This document shows positions 2,722 to 20,672 of a stretch of 64,000 nucleotides of DNA, piece after piece. The stretch comes from an uncultured bacterium (GTDB taxonomy: Bacteria; Actinomycetota; Acidimicrobiia; Spongiisociales; UBA5794). Every line of letters begins with the position of its first letter. The first letter of the stretch is position 1. The stretch lies in the NCBI GenBank assembly GCA_963801165.1, contig CAWDDT010000013.1, positions 64,001 to 128,000 of the forward strand, given 5' to 3'. The translations under genes and the position numbers were made by a program. The notes under the pieces were generated by a model. It saw nothing but the letters and a program-made list of their open reading frames with translations. It had not been told where the DNA came from and ran no database searches.

Positions 2722-3795
2722 ATGGCAGGGTGGATCATCAAAACCGACCACGGCCGGTGGAAGGCCCGGCTTTCCATCACCGGCCAAGGTACCCGCAACA
2801 AGACCTTCGATCGCAAGATCGACGCCGAGAAATGGTTGCGCAACGAGCAAGCTCGCCGCGACCGCTCCGAATGGACCGACCCGCGTCTCGCCCGGACCAC
2901 CTTCGTCGAGTGGGCCATTCCTTGGCTCGACACTCGCCGCCACCTCAAACCAAAGACCCTCGCCGGCTACGAATCGCTCCTCAGAGTTCACCTGCTCCCC
3001 CGCTTCGGACAGCAACCCCTCGCTGCCATCGACCCCCTCGGCATCGAAACCTGGGTCATCGAACTCACCGACAAGGGACTCTCCCCCAGCCGCACCCGGC
3101 AGGCGCATCAGCTTCTGTCGATGATCCTCAAGGCGGCCGTACGAGCCCGGCGACTGGCAACGAACCCGGCGGAGGGGACACCGTTGCCACGGTCCATCCG
3201 GCGGGCGCCTCGGTTCATCACCGCCGACCAGGTCGACGAGCTCGCAGCTCTCGTGCCAGATCGCTATCGGGCGCTGATCTACGTGCTGGCGTACGGCGGG
3301 CTTCGCTGGGCCGAAGCGGTCGGCCTCAAGCTAGAGCACGTTAGCCTCCTGCGCCGTCGTATCGTCGTCGCCGAGACGCTATCCGAGGTCAACGGCCGGC
3401 TGTATCCGGTGGCACCGAAGACCTGGGAGTCGCGGACGATCGCGATCCCTCCGTTTGTCGCCGACATCCTCGGCGAGCACATCGGAGGGTTCACGGCCGA
3501 CAGCGAGAGCGGTCTGGTCTTCACGACCGACGCGGGCACGCCGCTCCGCTCATCCAACTTCCGCCGCTGGGTGTGGAACCCGGCGATGGCGCAGTTGGAT
3601 GAGAAGGGCCTCCGGGTGCACGACCTCCGGCATACGTGCGCCTCGCTACTGATCGCCGCCGGCGCACATCCGGGACTCGTACGCGAACACCTCGGCCACT
3701 CGAGCATCCGCGTCACGATGGACGTCTACGGACACCTCTATGAGGACGTAAGGGATGAGATCGCCGAACGGTTGGAGCAGCAACACGCCCGGTGA
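2722..3795 (+). CDS. Tyrosine recombinase / integrase
   Basis: GLRWAEAVGL, HDLRHTCAS, LGHSSIRVTMDVYGH catalytic motifs; N-terminal arm-binding region present. Confidence 0.95.
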   Translation: MAGWIIKTDHGRWKARLSITGQGTRNKTFDRKIDAEKWLRNEQARRDRSEWTDPRLARTTFVEWAIPWLDTRRHLKPKTLAGYESLLRVHLLPRFGQQPLAAIDPLGIETWVIELTDKGLSPSRTRQAHQLLSMILKAAVRARRLATNPAEGTPLPRSIRRAPRFITADQVDELAALVPDRYRALIYVLAYGGLRWAEAVGLKLEHVSLLRRRIVVAETLSEVNGRLYPVAPKTWESRTIAIPPFVADILGEHIGGFTADSESGLVFTTDAGTPLRSSNFRRWVWNPAMAQLDEKGLRVHDLRHTCASLLIAAGAHPGLVREHLGHSSIRVTMDVYGHLYEDVRDEIAERLEQQHAR

Positions 3796-13385: not shown

Positions 13386-14520
13386 CCTCGAGATAGCCTT
13401 CGAGCCGCTTCGCCCGGGCGGGCTGGCGTAGCTTGGCCAGCGCCTTGGTCTCGATCTGGCGGATCCGCTCCCGGGTCACATGGAAGTGGCTACCCACCTC
13501 TTCCAGGGTCTTGACCTTGCCGTCGGCGAGGCCGAAGCGCATGACCAGCACTTGTCGCTCCCGCTCGTTGAGGCCTTCGAGCACGAGCGACAGGTACTCC
13601 TGGAGGAGCTTGAACGAAGCAACCTCTACCGGGACCTCCGCATCGGTGTCCTCAACGAAGTCGCCAAGGGTGGAGTCGTCCTCCTCCCCGAGCGGGGTCT
13701 CGAGCGAGACCGGATCCTGGGCGATCCTGCGCAGCTCGGTGACCTGTTGCGGCTCCAGCTCGAGCTCCTGGGCGATCTCGGTGATGGTGGGTTCCCGACC
13801 CAGCTCCTGCATCAGCGTTCGCTGGGCGCGGGCGAGCTTGTTGATGGTCTCGACCATGTGCACCGGCACCCGGATGGTACGTGCCTGGTCGGCGAGAGCC
13901 CTGGTCACCGCCTGCCGGATCCACCAGGTGGCGTATGTGGAGAACTTGAATCCCTTGCGGTAGTCGAACTTCTCAACGGCACGGATGAGCCCCAGGTTGC
14001 CTTCCTGGATGAGATCGAGAAGCGACAGGCCCCGCCCGACATACTTCTTGGCGATCGACACGACGAGCCGTAGGTTGGCCTCGACGAGTCGTTTCCGGGC
14101 GCGATCGGCGTTGCGGGCGGCGCGTTGCAGTATCACCCGCTCCGCCACGGGCAGCTCGACGGCGGTCTCTCCCTGCAGTTTCTCCGAGGCCCGCCCACCC
14201 GATTCCATCTGCATGGCGAGCTCGACTTCTTGCTGTGGAGTCAACAACGGGTAGCGCCCGATCTCCTGGAGGTACATGCGAACCGGGTCGGAGACGTGCA
14301 CCAGCTCGTCACTGCTGAGCGCGGTGGCCTCCAGCGCGTTTTGGGAGTCCTCTCGGACGGTTACCTTCTCGGTCTGCAGCGCCTCGACGACCTCGTCAAA
14401 GGCCTCAGGCGGTGCCTCGACATCTTCGAGCTCCTGCAGAATCTCGGTCACAACTAGAAAGCCGCGCTGCTTCCCACGCTTGGTCAGCATCTCGAGAACG
14501 CCTGTGGCTGCTTCGTTCAA
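13378..14520 (-). CDS. rpoD: Primary sigma-70 factor
   Basis: [46 protein letters not shown]; follows dnaG. Confidence 0.95.
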
Positions 14521-16286
14521 TCGCGGCTCCGTAGTTGCTTCTTCTGCTGCTGCAAAGCTACCAACTCTGCAAACCTGTCGGAATACTCCTGTGCGTCCGG
14601 TCCCAGGTTGGCCAGGAGCCTCTCCAATTCGGTGATCCGGCGGGTCAGCCGATCGACTTCCAGTCGGTTGATCACGTCCGCTGCCTCGTACATGTCCCTA
14701 TCGACGAGAGCCAGCTCGGCCAGAAGGGTAGCTTCCTCAGAGTCGTTCGCTCCCAACGCGCCGCCGAGGTCGGGCACCGCCCCGGGTTCCAGCGACTCGA
14801 TCGTGGGTCGAACCAGAAGGTAGGCCGAAAGGTGCCGCGGATCCGAGAAGAGGTGCTCCAGATCGCCAAACGAGCGAACCTGCCGGTCGTTGGCGAGCAC
14901 GAGCCGCAGTAACTCTTGCTCGGCTCTCTCGGTCCCGCTCAGACGTCGTCTCCGCGCAGGCGGTGGGGGCGACGCCGGCGCCGCCCGGTCCTGCTGACGG
15001 TTCCGACTCGCGGTGGCGATCGCGTCCTCGACAAGCCGCTTCTCGACTCCGGTGCGCTTCGAGATCAGGTTGGCGTACTCCTGGCGAACGAGCGAATCGG
15101 TGTAACGCGCCACCATGGCCGCAGTGGCTCGCACCGCCCGGCCCCGCGCCTCTACCTCGTTCAGATCGTGCCGGATCAGCTCGCGATCGACTGAGAACTG
15201 GAGCAGCGGCTGGGAGCTTTGCATCGCCTCGACCAGCCGGTCCGTGGCCCCCTCGGCAACCAGATCGGCCGGGTCCCTTCCCTCCGGCAACACAACAACC
15301 CTCATGTCGAGGTCGGCCGGTATCGCCAGATCAAATCCGCGCAACGCCGCTCCCGCTCCCGCCTCATCAGCGTCAAACGCCAACAGCACCCGCTCGCTGA
15401 ACCGCCGCAACAAATCGAGATGGTCCTCACCAAGCGCCGTTCCGCAGGTCGCCACGGCCACCGGGTGACCCGCCAGATGAAGCGCGATGACATCGGTATA
15501 TCCCTCAACAACGACGGACTCGTTGCGTCGCACCACCTCGCTCTTCGCCCAATTGAGACCGTAGAGGAGCCGGGATTTCCTGTAGATCGTCGTCTCGGAC
15601 GTGTTCAGGTACTTGGGCCCGTCACCGTCGAGCCGGCGTGCCCCGAAACCCACCGGATCACCACGCAGGTCGAAGATGGGGAACATGATGCGACCGCGAA
15701 ACCGGTCGATCATGCGGCCACGGGAGCTCTTCGACGCAAGACCCGCATCATCGAGGGTCTTGTAGTCGAAGCCCCTGGACTTGAGGTATCGGGTGAGCTC
15801 GTCCCATCCTGTGGGCGAGTAACCAATCTCGAACCGGTCGACCACTTCGCCGCCGTAGCCGCGCCCGCGCATATAGCTGCGAGCCTGCCCGGCGTCGGGC
15901 CCCTTCTTGAGACGCTCCCGATAGAAGTCCACGGCCTCCCGGGTCGCCCGCACCAGCTCTTCACGCTGGCTTCGTTTTCTCGCCTCACCCGGCGCCTCTG
16001 TGAGGGTGATGCCGGCACGCCGCGCCAGCAGTTCGATGGCCTCGCGGAAGTCGAGGTTCTGGGTTTCCTGGACCCAGGCGAAAATGTCTCCACCCTTGCC
16101 GCAGCCGAAACAGTGGTACAGCCCACGGGCCGGGTCAATCGAAAGCGACGGCGTCTTCTCCTGGTGGAATGGGCACACCGCCATGACGGTCCTCCCCGAC
16201 CGCTTCACCTTGGTCACCTCGGCAGCAAGCTCGACCAGATCGGTCTTGTCGCGGATGCGCTCGATGTCCTCACGGGGGTATGCCAC
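14517..16286 (-). CDS. dnaG: DNA primase
   Basis: [10 protein letters not shown] zinc finger, PKYLNT, VVEGYTD, FDADEAG; start GTG 16286. Confidence 0.97.
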
Positions 16287-16338
16287 GGGCGGAGTGTACC
16301 GGGGTGGGGTGACCAGCCGTCCTTGGCCGCTGCCAGCC

Positions 16339-16394
16339 ACCTCACACGGAAATGAACGACCTCACACAGAAATGAACGACCTCACAGAAATGAA
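16339..16394. repeat. 20-bp tandem repeat, about 3 copies
   Basis: ACCTCACACRGAAATGAACG twice plus a shortened third copy. Confidence 0.85.
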
Positions 16395-16440
16395 AAAGAA
16401 GGGAAGCCCGGAGGGAGGGGAGGGAGATGGGCTTCCCTTC
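16393..16440 (-). terminator. Intrinsic terminator with C-rich loop
   Basis: 12-bp perfect stem GAAGGGAAGCCC/GGGCTTCCCTTC followed by TTTTT on the minus strand; loop ATCTCCCTCCCCTCCCTCC. Confidence 0.8.
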
Positions 16441-16469
16441 TATTTCAATGGGGGCAAGCCCCCGAATCT

Positions 16470-16545
16470 GTGCTTTTTGTTCAGTGCTTTTTGTTCAGTG
16501 CTTGTTGTTATCTGCGCTTGTTGTTATCTGCGCTTGTTGTTACCT
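16470..16545 (-). repeat. Five AACAA(C/A)AAGC repeats (16- and 14-nt units)
   Basis: Three 16-nt and two 14-nt units in tandem. Confidence 0.9.
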
Positions 16546-16620
16546 GCGTCGTCCGATCGCTGCAGCCGCCTTGCGACGTGCAGTATCCATCAGGAACGCG
16601 ATATCTGGGTGAATTGTCAT
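16540..16620 (-). CDS. Putative 26-aa small protein MTIHPDIAFLMDTARRKAAAAIGRRR
   Basis: ATG with GAGG 5 nt upstream, just after a consensus-like promoter; below the ORF-track size cutoff. Confidence 0.5.
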   Translation of the reverse strand: MTIHPDIAFLMDTARRKAAAAIGRRR

Positions 16621-16644
16621 TCTGGCCTCGAATTCGATAGTCGC

Positions 16645-16685
16645 ATCATGCATGATATCGACTCAATTGTCAAACAATATGTTTG
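16645..16685 (-). promoter_or_regulatory. Sigma70 promoter with overlapping palindromic operator
   Basis: TTGACA (16673-16668)-17 nt-CATGAT (16650-16645); palindrome CAAACA-ATA-TGTTTG at 16671-16685. Confidence 0.7.
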
Positions 16686-16718
16686 TATTATCGGCCATTG
16701 CTGATAATCTTTTAGCCA

Positions 16719-17168
16719 ATGGACCATATTGACTATCAAATCGTTGAGTTGCTGTCTGAAGATGGAAGACTGGCCTACGCCAAGATCGCCGAGCGCATCG
16801 GAAAGTCGACCGCGACCGTCCATCAGCGAGTTCGCCGCCTCCGTGAACGCGGCTACATCAACTCCTTCCGTGCCGATCTGAACTGGGAAGCCCTCGGCTA
16901 CCCGCTCGATTCCTACATCAGCATCCGCGATACCGAATCGCGGGGTCTCGGCCACCTGTGCGACAAGCTCCGTTCGATCCCCTTCATCGTCTCGGCAGCC
17001 GCCGTTACCGGCGAGTTCGACCTGCTCCTGCACATTCGAGCCCGCTCCTCGAGCCAGCTCGGCGAGATCCTCGACGAGATCCGGCGCATCGCCCCCGGCC
17101 CGACCCGCACTGTCGTCACGCTCACTTCCTACATTTCGGGGCAGACTCCCCCGCTCCCGGCGGACTGA
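16719..17168 (+). CDS. Lrp/AsnC family regulator
   Basis: IDYQIVELLSEDGRLAYAKIAERIG..ATVHQRVRRL HTH; VTGEFDLLL. Confidence 0.93.
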   Translation: MDHIDYQIVELLSEDGRLAYAKIAERIGKSTATVHQRVRRLRERGYINSFRADLNWEALGYPLDSYISIRDTESRGLGHLCDKLRSIPFIVSAAAVTGEFDLLLHIRARSSSQLGEILDEIRRIAPGPTRTVVTLTSYISGQTPPLPAD

Positions 17169-17186: not shown

Positions 17187-18260
17187 ATGATCTGGCTGGT
17201 CGTCGTGTTTGTCTTTGCTCTTGCCGTCGCCGCCGCAACCGTGGTCAGCAAAGGCGACCCGTTCCAGACAGCAGCCAAGGAGTTGGGGCTCAAGCTGAGC
17301 CGCAGCGTCCCGGAGCTGACTCCTCGACTCGACGGCATGATCGACGGACTCGCTACGAAGATCGACATCGTCGGCGGCCATCAGGCTACGGTCCGATACC
17401 GCGTCTTCTACCCGGCGCTTGGCATCGCGTTGCGGCTTGATCGGGAGACGACGATAACCCGCACTCTGGGCCAGTTGGGCAGAGGCGACCAGCAGATCGG
17501 GGATGCAACCTTCGACGCCAAGTTCCGGGTGAATACCTCACGACCCGATGCGCTCAAGACGATGCTCACACCTGAGCTCCGTCGCAGCCTGGTCGATCTC
17601 ATCGATCGCTACCCCGGCGTTGTCGTCACCGACGGTGAGATCTCCCTGTTCAATGTCAACGTGGAACCACCCGCCACCGAACTGGTTACTACGACCCGTG
17701 ACCTCGTCGCCGTCGCCCGGTTGCTTGTCGCCAACCGCCCCGCACCGGCAACCGCGACGGATCCGCTCCAGACACGGCCGGCAGCTGCGACGCCGCGTGC
17801 CCCCGAAGCCGGGAGAGACGAGACTCCCGGAGAGACGGTGAACCAGGCAAGGCCGGCACCGGTACCTGTGGCGCCTCAACTGGAGGAGTCCGCACCAACG
17901 ACCGGGAGCGGTCTTCCCCAAGGATTCTTCGAGGAAGCATTCGGGACGAACCGGCTCAGCTTCGAGGACCAGGGCACGTTCGACAACGAGATCAAAGGCA
18001 GAATCGTTACCTTGTCGGGGGTGGTGAGACAGGCGAGCGAGGCTGCACCGGACTACGACGGGTCGGGCCAAAGCAAGGTCGTCGTCACCGTCGCCCGGAT
18101 CAATAACAGCCTGTACGGCGCTACGGACATCGATGCCGTGGTCTACCTGAAGACCCATGTCGATGTCGAGCGCGGCGCCAACATCACTTTCACGGGCACC
18201 GCAGACCGCATCGACGCCTTCATGCGCAGCGTTTACATCACCGATGCCCGGCTCGCTTGA
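17187..18260 (+). CDS. Hypothetical membrane-anchored protein
   Basis: N-terminal TM segment, Pro/Ala linker, C-terminal domain with possible OB-fold pattern. Confidence 0.7.
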   Translation: MIWLVVVFVFALAVAAATVVSKGDPFQTAAKELGLKLSRSVPELTPRLDGMIDGLATKIDIVGGHQATVRYRVFYPALGIALRLDRETTITRTLGQLGRGDQQIGDATFDAKFRVNTSRPDALKTMLTPELRRSLVDLIDRYPGVVVTDGEISLFNVNVEPPATELVTTTRDLVAVARLLVANRPAPATATDPLQTRPAAATPRAPEAGRDETPGETVNQARPAPVPVAPQLEESAPTTGSGLPQGFFEEAFGTNRLSFEDQGTFDNEIKGRIVTLSGVVRQASEAAPDYDGSGQSKVVVTVARINNSLYGATDIDAVVYLKTHVDVERGANITFTGTADRIDAFMRSVYITDARLA

Positions 18261-18530
18261 GAGCGGAGAAGAAGACCCGCCCCGATTGCCAGCCCGCTGT
18301 CAGGCCGGCCGCATCGGAAGCAGTCATTCCCTCGAACCCGCACCGGTCAAGCGCCGCCACCAACTCGGCAACCTCATAGCAGTGCTGGGTGAGCGTCACT
18401 CCGCGCCGTGTCCAGCCGTCTTGGCTCTCCACGAACCACGTGAATCGCGGAAATCCAGCACCTCGATCACCCGAACTGCGAAACCACCCCAACGGCGGTT
18501 GTAGATGTCGGCGAAATCGTCGTAGCTCAA
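18238..18530 (-). pseudogene. Internally deleted class I SAM methyltransferase remnant
   Basis: N-terminus [15 protein letters not shown] (TTG overlapping the glyQS stop) joined out of frame to a C-terminus ..LTQHCYEVAELVAALDRCGF..RVFFSALK; SAM-binding core missing. Confidence 0.55.
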
Positions 18531-19834
18531 CGACCCAGACGTTCCACTAGATAGTCGACAACCTTGTCGATCGACACCCTGTCCTGCGCCATCGAGTCCC
18601 GGTCACGCACCGTCACCGCCTGATCCTCGAGAGAGTCGAAGTCGACGGTCACGCAGTACGGCGTACCTATCTCGTCCTGACGGCGGTAGCGACGCCCGAT
18701 TGCCTGGGTTACGTCGTGCTCCACCGGGTAGAGCGGGCGTAGGTCCTGGGCGAGCTTGGCAGAGACCTCGATCAACTCGGTCTTCTTGGAAAGCGGCAAC
18801 ACCGCGACCTTGACCGGAGCGAGACGCTTGTCGAGACGCATCACGGCGCGGGTCTCCCCCCTCACTTCCTCCTCGTCGTATGCGTCGAGAAGAAAAGCAA
18901 AGGTCGTCCGGGTGGCGCCGGCGGCCGGCTCAATGACATAGGGAACGAAGCGCTCTCCGCTGTCCTGGTCGAAGTAGGTGAGGTCCTTGCCCGACATCTC
19001 CATGTGGGCCTTCAGGTCGAAGTCCGTCCTGCTGGCGATACCCTCCAGCTCGTCGAAACCCCAGGGGAAGTTGTAGTCCACGTCAAAAGTGCCGGCCGAG
19101 TAGTGCGACAGCTCCTCGGGCTCGTGCTCCCGGAACCGGAGGTTCTCCTCCTTCATCCCGAGATCGATGTACCACTTCTTGCGTTCGTCGATCCAGTACC
19201 GGAACCACTCGTCGGCTTCCCCGGGCCGGCAGAAGAACTCCATCTCCATCTGCTCGAACTCGCGGGTGCGGAAAACGAACTGACCGGGGGTGATCTCGTT
19301 GCGGAACGACTTCCCGATCTGGGCGATACCGAAGGGCAGCTTGAGCCGGGCGGTTCGCCGTACGTTCTCGAAGTTGATGAAGATGCCCTGCGCCGTCTCG
19401 GGGCGGAGGTACACGGAGTTGTCCTCGCTCTCCACCGGGCCCATGTGCGTCTTGAACATCAAGTTGAAGTTCTTCGCCTCGGTGAAGGTACCGCGCTTGC
19501 CACAGGACGGGCATTGGTCGGGGTCGTCTAGCTTGTCCTCGCGGAACCGGTTGTTGCAGTTGGTGCACTCGACCAACGGGTCCGTGAACGACGCCAGATG
19601 CCCGGACGCCTCCCACACCAACGGGGACTGGATGATCGCCGAGTCGAGCCCCACGACGTTGTCACGCATCCGCACCATCGAATGCCACCACTGCTCCTTG
19701 ACGTTGCGGAGCAACTCGACACCGAGCGGTCCGTAGTCGTAGGCCGAGCGGAGACCACCGTAGATCTCCGACGACTGGAAGACGAAGCCGCGCTTCTTGC
19801 TCAGATTGACGATCGTGTCGAAGTCGCTAGGCAT
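18527..19834 (-). CDS. glyQS: Glycine--tRNA ligase (alpha2 type)
   Basis: [39 protein letters not shown]. Confidence 0.97.
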
Positions 19835-19901
19835 ATCACGTCCAGATAGGGATTTGGTCCGGAATGATAGGTCGGCTCCGGCGGGCTCGGGATGACGGGT
19901 A

Positions 19902-20672
19902 TCAGCCGTCGGTCGCGGCGTCGCCCGCATCCGCTCCTGACGTGTCCCTGGCGCTCCCAAACCGTCTGTCCCGCGCTTGGTACTCGGCAACACAGGCGAC
20001 GAGCGTGTTGCGGTTGAAATCGGGCCACAGCACCGGTGTAAAGACATACTCGGCGTACGCAGACTCCCACAACAAGTAATTGCTCGTCCGCTGCTCGCCG
20101 CTGGAGCGGATCACAAGGTCGGGATCGGGCATCTCCGGGAGGTAGAGACGGGCAGCAACCGCGGCGATGTCGACTTCTTCCGGGTCCAGATCACCCGCGG
20201 CTGCCTCGGAAGCGATTCGGCGCGCCGCGTCTGCCAGCTCCGCCCGTCCCCCGTAGTTGAACGCAAACACCAGATGCAGCGTCTCGTTAGCCTTCGTCAG
20301 CGCCTCAGCGGCGCGAATCTCCTCACGCAGCTCGTCGGGGACCCTCGGGTCGTCACGATCACCGATGAAGTGAATCCGCACGCCCTTCTGCTTCATCTCG
20401 TTGCGGCGACGGCGCAGCAGGTCGATGTTGAAGTGCATCAGGAACTCGACCTCAACAGCGTCCCTGGCCCAGTTCTCGGTGGAGAACACGTATGCGCTGA
20501 GCCACTCGACACCAAGATCCAGGGCACCCTCGATGACGTCAAATAGCGCCGGCTCACCGGCGGCGTGGCCCTGCGTCCGATGCAGGCCCCGAGCGTTGGC
20601 CCAGCGGCCGTTGCCGTCGAGGATGAGCCCGACGTGTCGGGGCACGCGGCTGCGATCGACATCGTCATGCAT
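19902..20672 (-). CDS. uppS: Polyprenyl diphosphate synthase
   Basis: [34 protein letters not shown]. Confidence 0.95.

Follow-up and report, generated by a model that had tools for sequence, protein, structure and literature searches.

A conserved, unannotated small gene linked to a divergent Lrp/AsnC regulator upstream of dnaG in Acidimicrobiia: a candidate micropeptide-encoding RNA with an anti-Shine-Dalgarno-like loop

We examined a small unit on the minus strand, at about 16390-16640, of a 64,000-nucleotide (nt) stretch of DNA from an uncultured bacterium (hereafter, the window). The unit lies between dnaG, the essential primase gene, and a divergently oriented gene for an Lrp/AsnC-family regulator. 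It is unannotated, its features are conserved, it co-occurs with the Lrp gene, and dnaG is independent of it. We give an even chance to the interpretation that it is a dual-function riboregulator, a small Lrp-linked gene whose products are a micropeptide and an RNA bearing a regulatory loop resembling an anti-Shine-Dalgarno (anti-SD) sequence. A sequence-only reading of the window had described a promoter, a GAGG motif, a 26-codon open reading frame (ORF), five AACAA(C/A)AAGC repeats, two hairpins, and a U-tract on this strand, all of which are present. Its proposal of a dual-function small RNA (sRNA) linked to an Lrp-type regulator is reasonable because the unit, ORF, and loop are conserved and match no Rfam family, while the sponge role that it gave to the repeats did not hold up in relatives. 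Named homologs of the DnaG protein come from Acidimicrobiia, a class known mostly from metagenomes.

The small unit occurs where the Lrp gene occurs. One profile scan of genome contigs, built from an alignment of 36 DnaG sequences, yielded 80 dnaG-anchored loci (L001 to L080). Those closest to the window by DnaG identity are L001 (79%) and L002 (72%), and one further genome carries a DnaG that is 98% identical. A divergent Lrp ortholog is found upstream of dnaG in 12 of the 80 loci and in the window, and the intergenic comparisons below concern these 13 regions. All 12 Lrp-dnaG loci carry the ORF, the terminal hairpin, or both, which is the conservation beside Lrp orthologs that the sequence-only reading had set as a test. 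The unit is found in 13 out of 81 regions, every one with a divergent Lrp/AsnC gene upstream of dnaG, and neither the peptide profile nor the hairpin model detected a further unit in the 68 loci without Lrp (61 of which have at least 500 nt upstream). In loci without Lrp, glyS directly precedes dnaG and ends approximately 85-100 nt before its start (L010, L017, and L018), and the Lrp gene and the small unit therefore behave as a two-gene insertion. FastTree was run on 63 DnaG rows, those of the window and L001-L062, with L063-L080 left out; in the resulting tree, all 13 Lrp rows fall within one 31-row group (support 94). The distribution of Lrp is patchy, since it requires at least eight changes on this tree.

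To judge by its conservation, the ORF is a real micropeptide gene of an unnamed family. By inspection, 9 out of 13 regions contain an ORF of 26-30 codons with a Shine-Dalgarno (SD) sequence, and these nine share the pattern M..(H/N)PD(A/T)..Q(M/L)V..R..AA....(R/K). With the window peptide as query, tblastn located ORFs in the corresponding position in L012 (3.5e-5), L001 (1.7e-4), and L002 (0.027). Between the window and L001, differences at first, second, and third codon positions number 2, 5, and 13, and between L001 and L002 they number 10, 11, and 20. This concentration at the third position indicates that the ORF is under coding constraint. The unit has, on conservation grounds only, the really coding small ORF that characterizes a dual-function sRNA.

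The micropeptide matched nothing named in the databases that we searched. A profile of the nine ORFs gave 10 hits at E<=0.001 against 1.84 billion representatives, and nine of the 10 are ORFs of 26-46 amino acids (aa) with the shared motif, about six of them not near-copies of profile members. In a collection of 5.8 billion proteins, the peptide falls in 14 clusters, all unnamed or labeled "hypothetical protein" and none with a precomputed Pfam domain. Pfam and NCBIfam returned no families for the nine peptides at E up to 10. When run on six-frame translations of the window and the 80 loci, the profile recovered only its own nine sequences, with the next hit at E 0.29. AlphaFold2 modeled the L028 member, with 17 aligned sequences, as one helix spanning residues 4-29 (pLDDT 82); for the micropeptide, a single helix whose C-terminus is basic is predicted. 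A modeled complex of two Lrp chains with the peptide scored 0.00; its controls were not run, and it is evidence neither way. An intact ORF is missing from four regions (L004, L006, L007, and L021). We note that L021 contains a possible ORF remnant at 3237-3290 on the plus strand, an HPDT word without a proper start or stop, and that this loss may be an assembly error if L021 is, as we guess, an indel-prone long-read metagenome-assembled genome.

By DNA identity, the terminal hairpin is the best-conserved part of the intergenic region, above the ORF. Its identity is 90.5% with L002 (over 74 nt) and 92.7% with L001 (over 55 nt). The sequence-only reading was right about the hairpin and its U-tract and counted 12 base pairs (bp) in the stem, which has 13 bp once a closing A-U pair is included. 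The hairpin has a predicted folding energy of -23.8 kcal/mol (z = -5.0), and none of 200 shuffles folds as well; the whole 261-nt stretch folds with z = -3.5. Its loop, AUCUCCCUCCCCUCCCUCC (19 nt, 16428-16410), is CU-rich and contains three CCUCC words. No other hairpin in the 64-kb window has both a stem of at least 13 bp and a CU-rich loop. A smaller hairpin precedes it and has counterparts at the corresponding place in L001 and L002. In L011 and L019, the corresponding first hairpin has a C-rich loop, so these regions have two successive C-rich-loop hairpins.

Hairpins of the same design recur across the orthologous regions. We screened 639 kb for hairpins with stems of at least 8 bp and CU-rich loops of 7-24 nt and found 13 with a stem of at least 13 bp, nine of which lie 54-130 nt upstream of dnaG. 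Because the screen selected on loop composition, the fair statement is that CU-loop hairpins are present in 9 out of 13 regions (the window, L001, L002, L004, L006, L007, L011, L019, and L021). The loops, 13-20 nt long, stay CU-rich over about six lineages while stem sequences change, and the purine/pyrimidine asymmetry of the hairpin arms is kept in all lineages. In the hairpin alignment, 93.8% of cells are paired and 8 out of 12 pairs show compensatory change, a result reached by none of 500 shuffles, and sliding the registers lowers pairing to 42-71%. In predicted full-length transcripts, the loop has a probability of being unpaired of 0.84-1.00 (1.00 in the window), compared with 0.31-0.47 overall. 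The CCUCC-bearing loop that had been singled out in the window is thus kept and predicted to be unpaired. CCTCC words occur in 10 out of 13 regions (18 in all), compared with GGAGG in 2 out of 13. G-U pairs in L006, L007, and L021, together with U-tracts after the hairpin in the window, L001, L002, and L006, point to the dnaG-sense strand.

A covariance model of the hairpin (R1), searched against the window and 80 loci, recovered only the nine training sequences and their opposite strands, plus one hit in L029 (729-776), which we rejected as an ordinary short-loop terminator. On the strand opposite the unit, the loop complement GGAGGGAGGGGAGGGAG at 16410-16426 (plus strand) is a G-quadruplex-type motif; we discarded the G-quadruplex idea, as this G-rich complement is not conserved (L021 loop). 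Hairpins with stems of 13-16 bp and CU-rich loops were also seen in three Streptomyces loci, L073 (112-146, plus strand), L075 (1927-1884, minus strand), and L080 (1516-1549, plus strand), where loops such as CTCCTCCTC sit 1.6-3.4 kb upstream of dnaG.

The small unit and the Lrp gene appear to have separate, divergent promoters. In a scan of 1.5 kb, we found two promoter-like sites, compared with 0.3 expected from shuffles. Six of the 13 regions (the window, L001, L002, L004, L006, and L021) have a TTGAC(A/T)-17-(C/T)AnnnT promoter at a distance of 45-46 nt from the start of Lrp; three of the six (L004, L006, and L021) retain it along with the hairpin but have no intact ORF. The transcription start site in the window is predicted near 16638 and the end near 16393, giving a predicted RNA of about 246-248 nt, which agrees with the 250 nt estimated earlier. 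The neighboring regulator has the AsnC-type helix-turn-helix (HTH) and the AsnC_trans_reg ligand domain of its family, both above cut-off. Its gene has TAATCT at 16705-16710 and no SD sequence. The Lrp gene is apparently leaderless: a TAnnnT box lies at -16 to -11 from the ATG in 12 out of 13 regions, and SD-like words within 18 nt of the start occur in L011 and L019 only. A promoter-like site on the plus strand at 16614-16641 was rejected as the Lrp promoter because a -10 box immediately precedes the ATG of that gene. Between the two promoters is the palindrome ATTATC-N10-GATAAT, which is also present in L001 and L004, with only its right half in L002, and which is a candidate Lrp operator.

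The dnaG gene also appears to be leaderless, with its own promoter, across Acidimicrobiia. In the window, the -10 box TACACT (16298-16293) lies 6 nt before a GTG start at 16286, from which the DnaG N-terminus is conserved. Of 43 loci in which the match starts from residue 1, 40 have a TAnnnT box (mostly TACACT) at -16 to -11, 6-7 nt before the dnaG start, and no SD sequence. This box is present with or without the small unit and Lrp upstream. Since dnaG has a leaderless promoter of its own, the small unit is not its leader. The coordinates of these features are collected in Table 1.

Table 1. Features of the small unit and its neighbors in the window
Feature	Position	Strand	Detail or basis
26-codon ORF	16620..16540 (including stop)	-	GAGG at 16629-16626; reads MTIHPDIAFLMDTARRKAAAAIGRRR
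Promoter of the small unit, TTGACA-17-CATGAT	16673..16645	-	Scan, 10 of 12 matches
Small hairpin, GGGGG-CUUG-CCCCC	16463-16450	-	Sequence and folding
Terminal hairpin and U-tract	16441-16397, to 16393 with the U-tract	-	13-bp stem, purine-rich 5' arm
Palindrome, ATTATC-N10-GATAAT	16687..16708		Between both divergent promoters
Lrp/AsnC-family regulator gene	16719..17168	+	Pfam HTH_AsnC-type 1.3e-15, AsnC_trans_reg 1.1e-09
dnaG (primase) with its own -10 box	14517..16298	-	Pfam DNAG_N, Zn_ribbon_DnaG, Toprim
Two A-rich tandem arrays, 16-nt x3.1 and 14-nt x2.9	16466/16470-16548	-	Tandem-repeat analysis
20-nt x2.9 tandem array, unit CGTTCATTTCTGTGTGAGGT	16339..16394	-	Between terminator and dnaG promoter
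glyS (class II aminoacyl-tRNA synthetase)	18527-20047	-	Neighbor of the module

Together, these features suggest how the unit might work as a dual-function riboregulator. It would be an autonomous small gene that travels with the Lrp/AsnC gene, the two forming a module inserted between glyS and the leaderless dnaG in one Acidimicrobiia clade. From the TTGACA-17-CAnnnT promoter, about 80 bp away from the start of Lrp, an RNA of about 250 nt would be made on the minus strand, from about 16638 to about 16393, and would encode a helical micropeptide of 26 residues whose C-terminus is basic. The RNA would end in the 13-bp hairpin, exposing an unpaired CU-rich loop of 19 nt with CCUCC words. The architecture suggests that the divergent Lrp protein sets transcription of the RNA, and the peptide may act as a protein on some partner. 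By analogy with 6C and alpha-r14/NfeR1, the loop may act in trans, with no need of a chaperone, by pairing with G-rich stretches or SD sequences in mRNAs. From its position, the hairpin may also terminate the unit and shield the dnaG promoter.

The unit resembles 6C, alpha-r14/NfeR1, and SgrS/SgrT most closely in how it may work, but it is a member of none of them. At the gathering score, Rfam scans of the whole window and 12 loci returned only tRNAs, and permissive scans (E up to 10) of the window at 16200-16800 and of L019 at 3050-3520 returned only noise, namely Thr_leader (20.4 bits), microRNA models, and ar14 (14.1 bits). A match to a known Rfam family, which would have spoken against the earlier proposal, was not found. 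Judging by titles and the opening lines of abstracts, none of the papers that our literature searches on sRNAs of Acidimicrobiia and on dual-function sRNAs of actinobacteria brought up appears to describe this element, or any riboregulator or dual-function sRNA from Acidimicrobiia.

The 6C RNA (B11 in mycobacteria) shares with the unit its phylum, Actinomycetota, and a stable hairpin that exposes an unpaired C-rich loop (PMC6486639). As described there, 6C needs no chaperone for its C-rich loops to bind ribosome binding sites that are G-rich, as in panD and dnaB (PMC6486639). That RNA has two C-rich-loop hairpins (named L2 and L3; PMC6486639), whereas the window has one, its first loop being CUUG. 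Unlike 6C, the unit carries a conserved ORF, is tied to Lrp, and is restricted to one Acidimicrobiia clade, and neither the window nor L019 matched the 6C model of Rfam at the gathering score or at E up to 10. In alpha-r14/NfeR1 (the "cuckoo" RNAs), as in the unit, anti-SD motifs of the CCUCC type are unpaired while stems vary in sequence; the motif CCUCCUCCC lies in unpaired regions of hairpins with differing stems, action is Hfq independent, and a dedicated regulator controls transcription (PMC10746234). However, alpha-r14 belongs to alpha-proteobacteria and has three hairpins with identical CCUCCUCCC and no ORF, whereas the unit has a single CU-loop hairpin. The ar14 model of Rfam scored 14.1 bits in L019, compared with a gathering score of 58.8, and did not match in the window.

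The gene order resembles that of SgrR and SgrS-SgrT, in which a regulator is divergent from the small RNA and a 5' ORF is followed by a 3' pairing region (in the unit, a candidate one) and terminator. Among SgrS homologs, the pairing region is most conserved and the ORF most variable (PMC2760817), and in the unit the hairpin is likewise better kept than the ORF. SgrS of enterobacteria needs Hfq (PMC2760806). The unit has no sequence relationship to SgrS, and its regulator is from another family.

Several observations weigh against the riboregulator interpretation. No more than about 10 lineages stand behind the 13 regions, the peptide profile was built from nine ORFs of these same loci, and the covariation alignment was fitted to a model built from the same loci, which favors structure. 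The loop is conserved by composition, not by sequence. The excess of CCTCC is modest, with 10 out of 13 regions observed and about 5.5 out of 13 expected from mononucleotide shuffles, and part of it is simple C-richness, since the shuffles already predict that many. Within the window, a search for the loop complement with up to three mismatches found only the loop itself, with no extended complement elsewhere. The ORF and the CU loop occur together in only 5 out of 13 regions. Hairpins related by their purine-rich arm have loops of only 4-7 nt in L008, L012, and L028, and L009 has no significant fold, so that four of the 13 regions bear the ORF with a short-loop hairpin or none. Additionally, C-rich stem-loops have been suggested to be alternative terminators among Gram-positive bacteria of high GC content (PMC6486639).

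The main rival explanation is that the unit is a plain micropeptide mRNA whose hairpin is only an intrinsic terminator and an insulator for the dnaG promoter, with a loop that has no role in trans. We regard this as possible rather than probable. The conservation and coding constraint of the ORF are what such an mRNA would show, as are the U-tracts that follow the hairpin in four regions (the window, L001, L002, and L006), the position of the hairpin 54-130 nt before dnaG, and the persistence of the ORF alongside a short-loop hairpin or none in L008, L009, L012, and L028; the proposal of C-rich terminators (PMC6486639) also fits. However, terminators do not usually have loops of 13-20 nt, and these loops nevertheless remain CU-rich in about six lineages despite changes in the stem. 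The better conservation of the hairpin than of the ORF, and the persistence of promoter and hairpin where no intact ORF remains (L004, L006, and L021), also argue against a hairpin that only terminates a peptide mRNA.

The order of promoter, short ORF, C-rich and G-poor hairpin with U-tract, and operon resembles that of a leader-peptide attenuator, and a cis-acting leader of dnaG-rpoD could work in this way: translation or stalling on the ORF would control termination, either intrinsic or Rho dependent (at the C-rich tract), and hence read-through into dnaG. We consider this unlikely. A weak resemblance to Thr_leader (20.4 bits, E 0.24) points in its direction but is far under the gathering score of 55, and no regulatory-codon runs occur in the peptide. 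Moreover, dnaG is leaderless and autonomous in 40 out of 43 loci whether or not the unit is present, and because it has no SD sequence, a read-through RNA would offer it no ribosome binding site. The unit follows Lrp, not dnaG, and the ORF and hairpin are separable.

It is likewise improbable, in our judgment, that the CU loop with the pyrimidine-rich 3' arm is a protein-binding site instead of a segment that pairs with mRNAs, in which case the RNA would recruit or titrate a protein that binds pyrimidines (for example, Rho, S1, a cold-shock protein, or a KH protein). Such a site would account for the conservation of composition (C/U-rich and G-poor) and not of sequence, and for the arm asymmetry seen in all lineages. 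For a Rho loading site, though, these loops, at 13-20 nt, would be short. Known C-rich-loop RNAs work by base pairing (PMC6486639).

The A-rich repeats appear to be a local feature of the window. The five AACAA(C/A)AAGC units sit inside two tandem arrays, whose copies match at 96%. The 16-mer has five matches in the window with up to three mismatches, four of them in the array, compared with 0.25 expected. The first copy of the array includes the last codons and the stop of the ORF, and the arrays are interpreted as recent slippage products because their copies are near perfect and start in the ORF stop region. To judge from these comparisons, the repeats are a lineage-specific, recent tandem duplication with no conserved role. 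It is hardly credible that they form a CrcZ-like sponge for an RNA-binding protein (CrcZ itself binds Hfq/Crc): AAnAAnAA words number five in the window, and the stretch where they lie is predicted to be mostly unpaired, but they are absent from all 12 related intergenic regions, including those of L001 (79% DnaG identity) and L002 (72%), the copies begin in the ORF stop region, and Rfam gave no CrcZ match. A second, 20-nt array flanks the terminal hairpin on the side opposite the A-rich arrays, appears to be specific to the window, and may be a site for a regulator or simply a product of slippage. Inspection by eye showed no equivalent of it in the regions of L001 and L002; in L002, two GTTCAG..GGTG words are found at its place.

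The module sits in a gene neighborhood with some resemblance to known operons. On the minus strand, the order is glyS, the Lrp/small-unit module, dnaG, and a gene for an rpoD-like sigma factor, and the sigma factor gene starts at a TTG that overlaps the stop of dnaG (GATTGA, 14517-14523, minus strand). This coupling of dnaG and rpoD resembles the macromolecular-synthesis operon, but rpsU is not present. In other bacteria, rpsU precedes dnaG, and for this reason we considered whether the small ORF is an rpsU (bS21) remnant, which is unsupported, as there is no Pfam or NCBIfam match. Downstream of Lrp on the plus strand is an ORF of 357 aa (17187-18260) with a hydrophobic N-terminus and no Pfam family, which is kept in L001, L002, L012, and L006 and also in L003, L024, L035, and L014, which lack Lrp.

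Both genes that flank the unit, lrp and dnaG, are apparently leaderless in this clade, and most Actinobacteria are said to lack Hfq. One could imagine that Lrp senses an amino acid and drives the RNA, that the CCUCC loop imitates the end of 16S rRNA (its 3' end) and competes with ribosomes for SD sequences, and that SD-led translation would be damped while the leaderless lrp and dnaG escape. The translation machinery would also be the target of the basic, helical micropeptide, and in a phylum that lacks Hfq the whole would switch, with no chaperone, between translation that is SD-led and translation that is leaderless. We consider this full scheme very unlikely as it stands. The distribution of the unit is narrow, with 13 out of 81 regions and a peptide found in 14 clusters among 5.8 billion proteins. 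If real, the unit would represent a new micropeptide family and a new RNA with an anti-SD loop in a class where none appears to have been described, and Lrp and the unit would form a clear pair of regulator and target.

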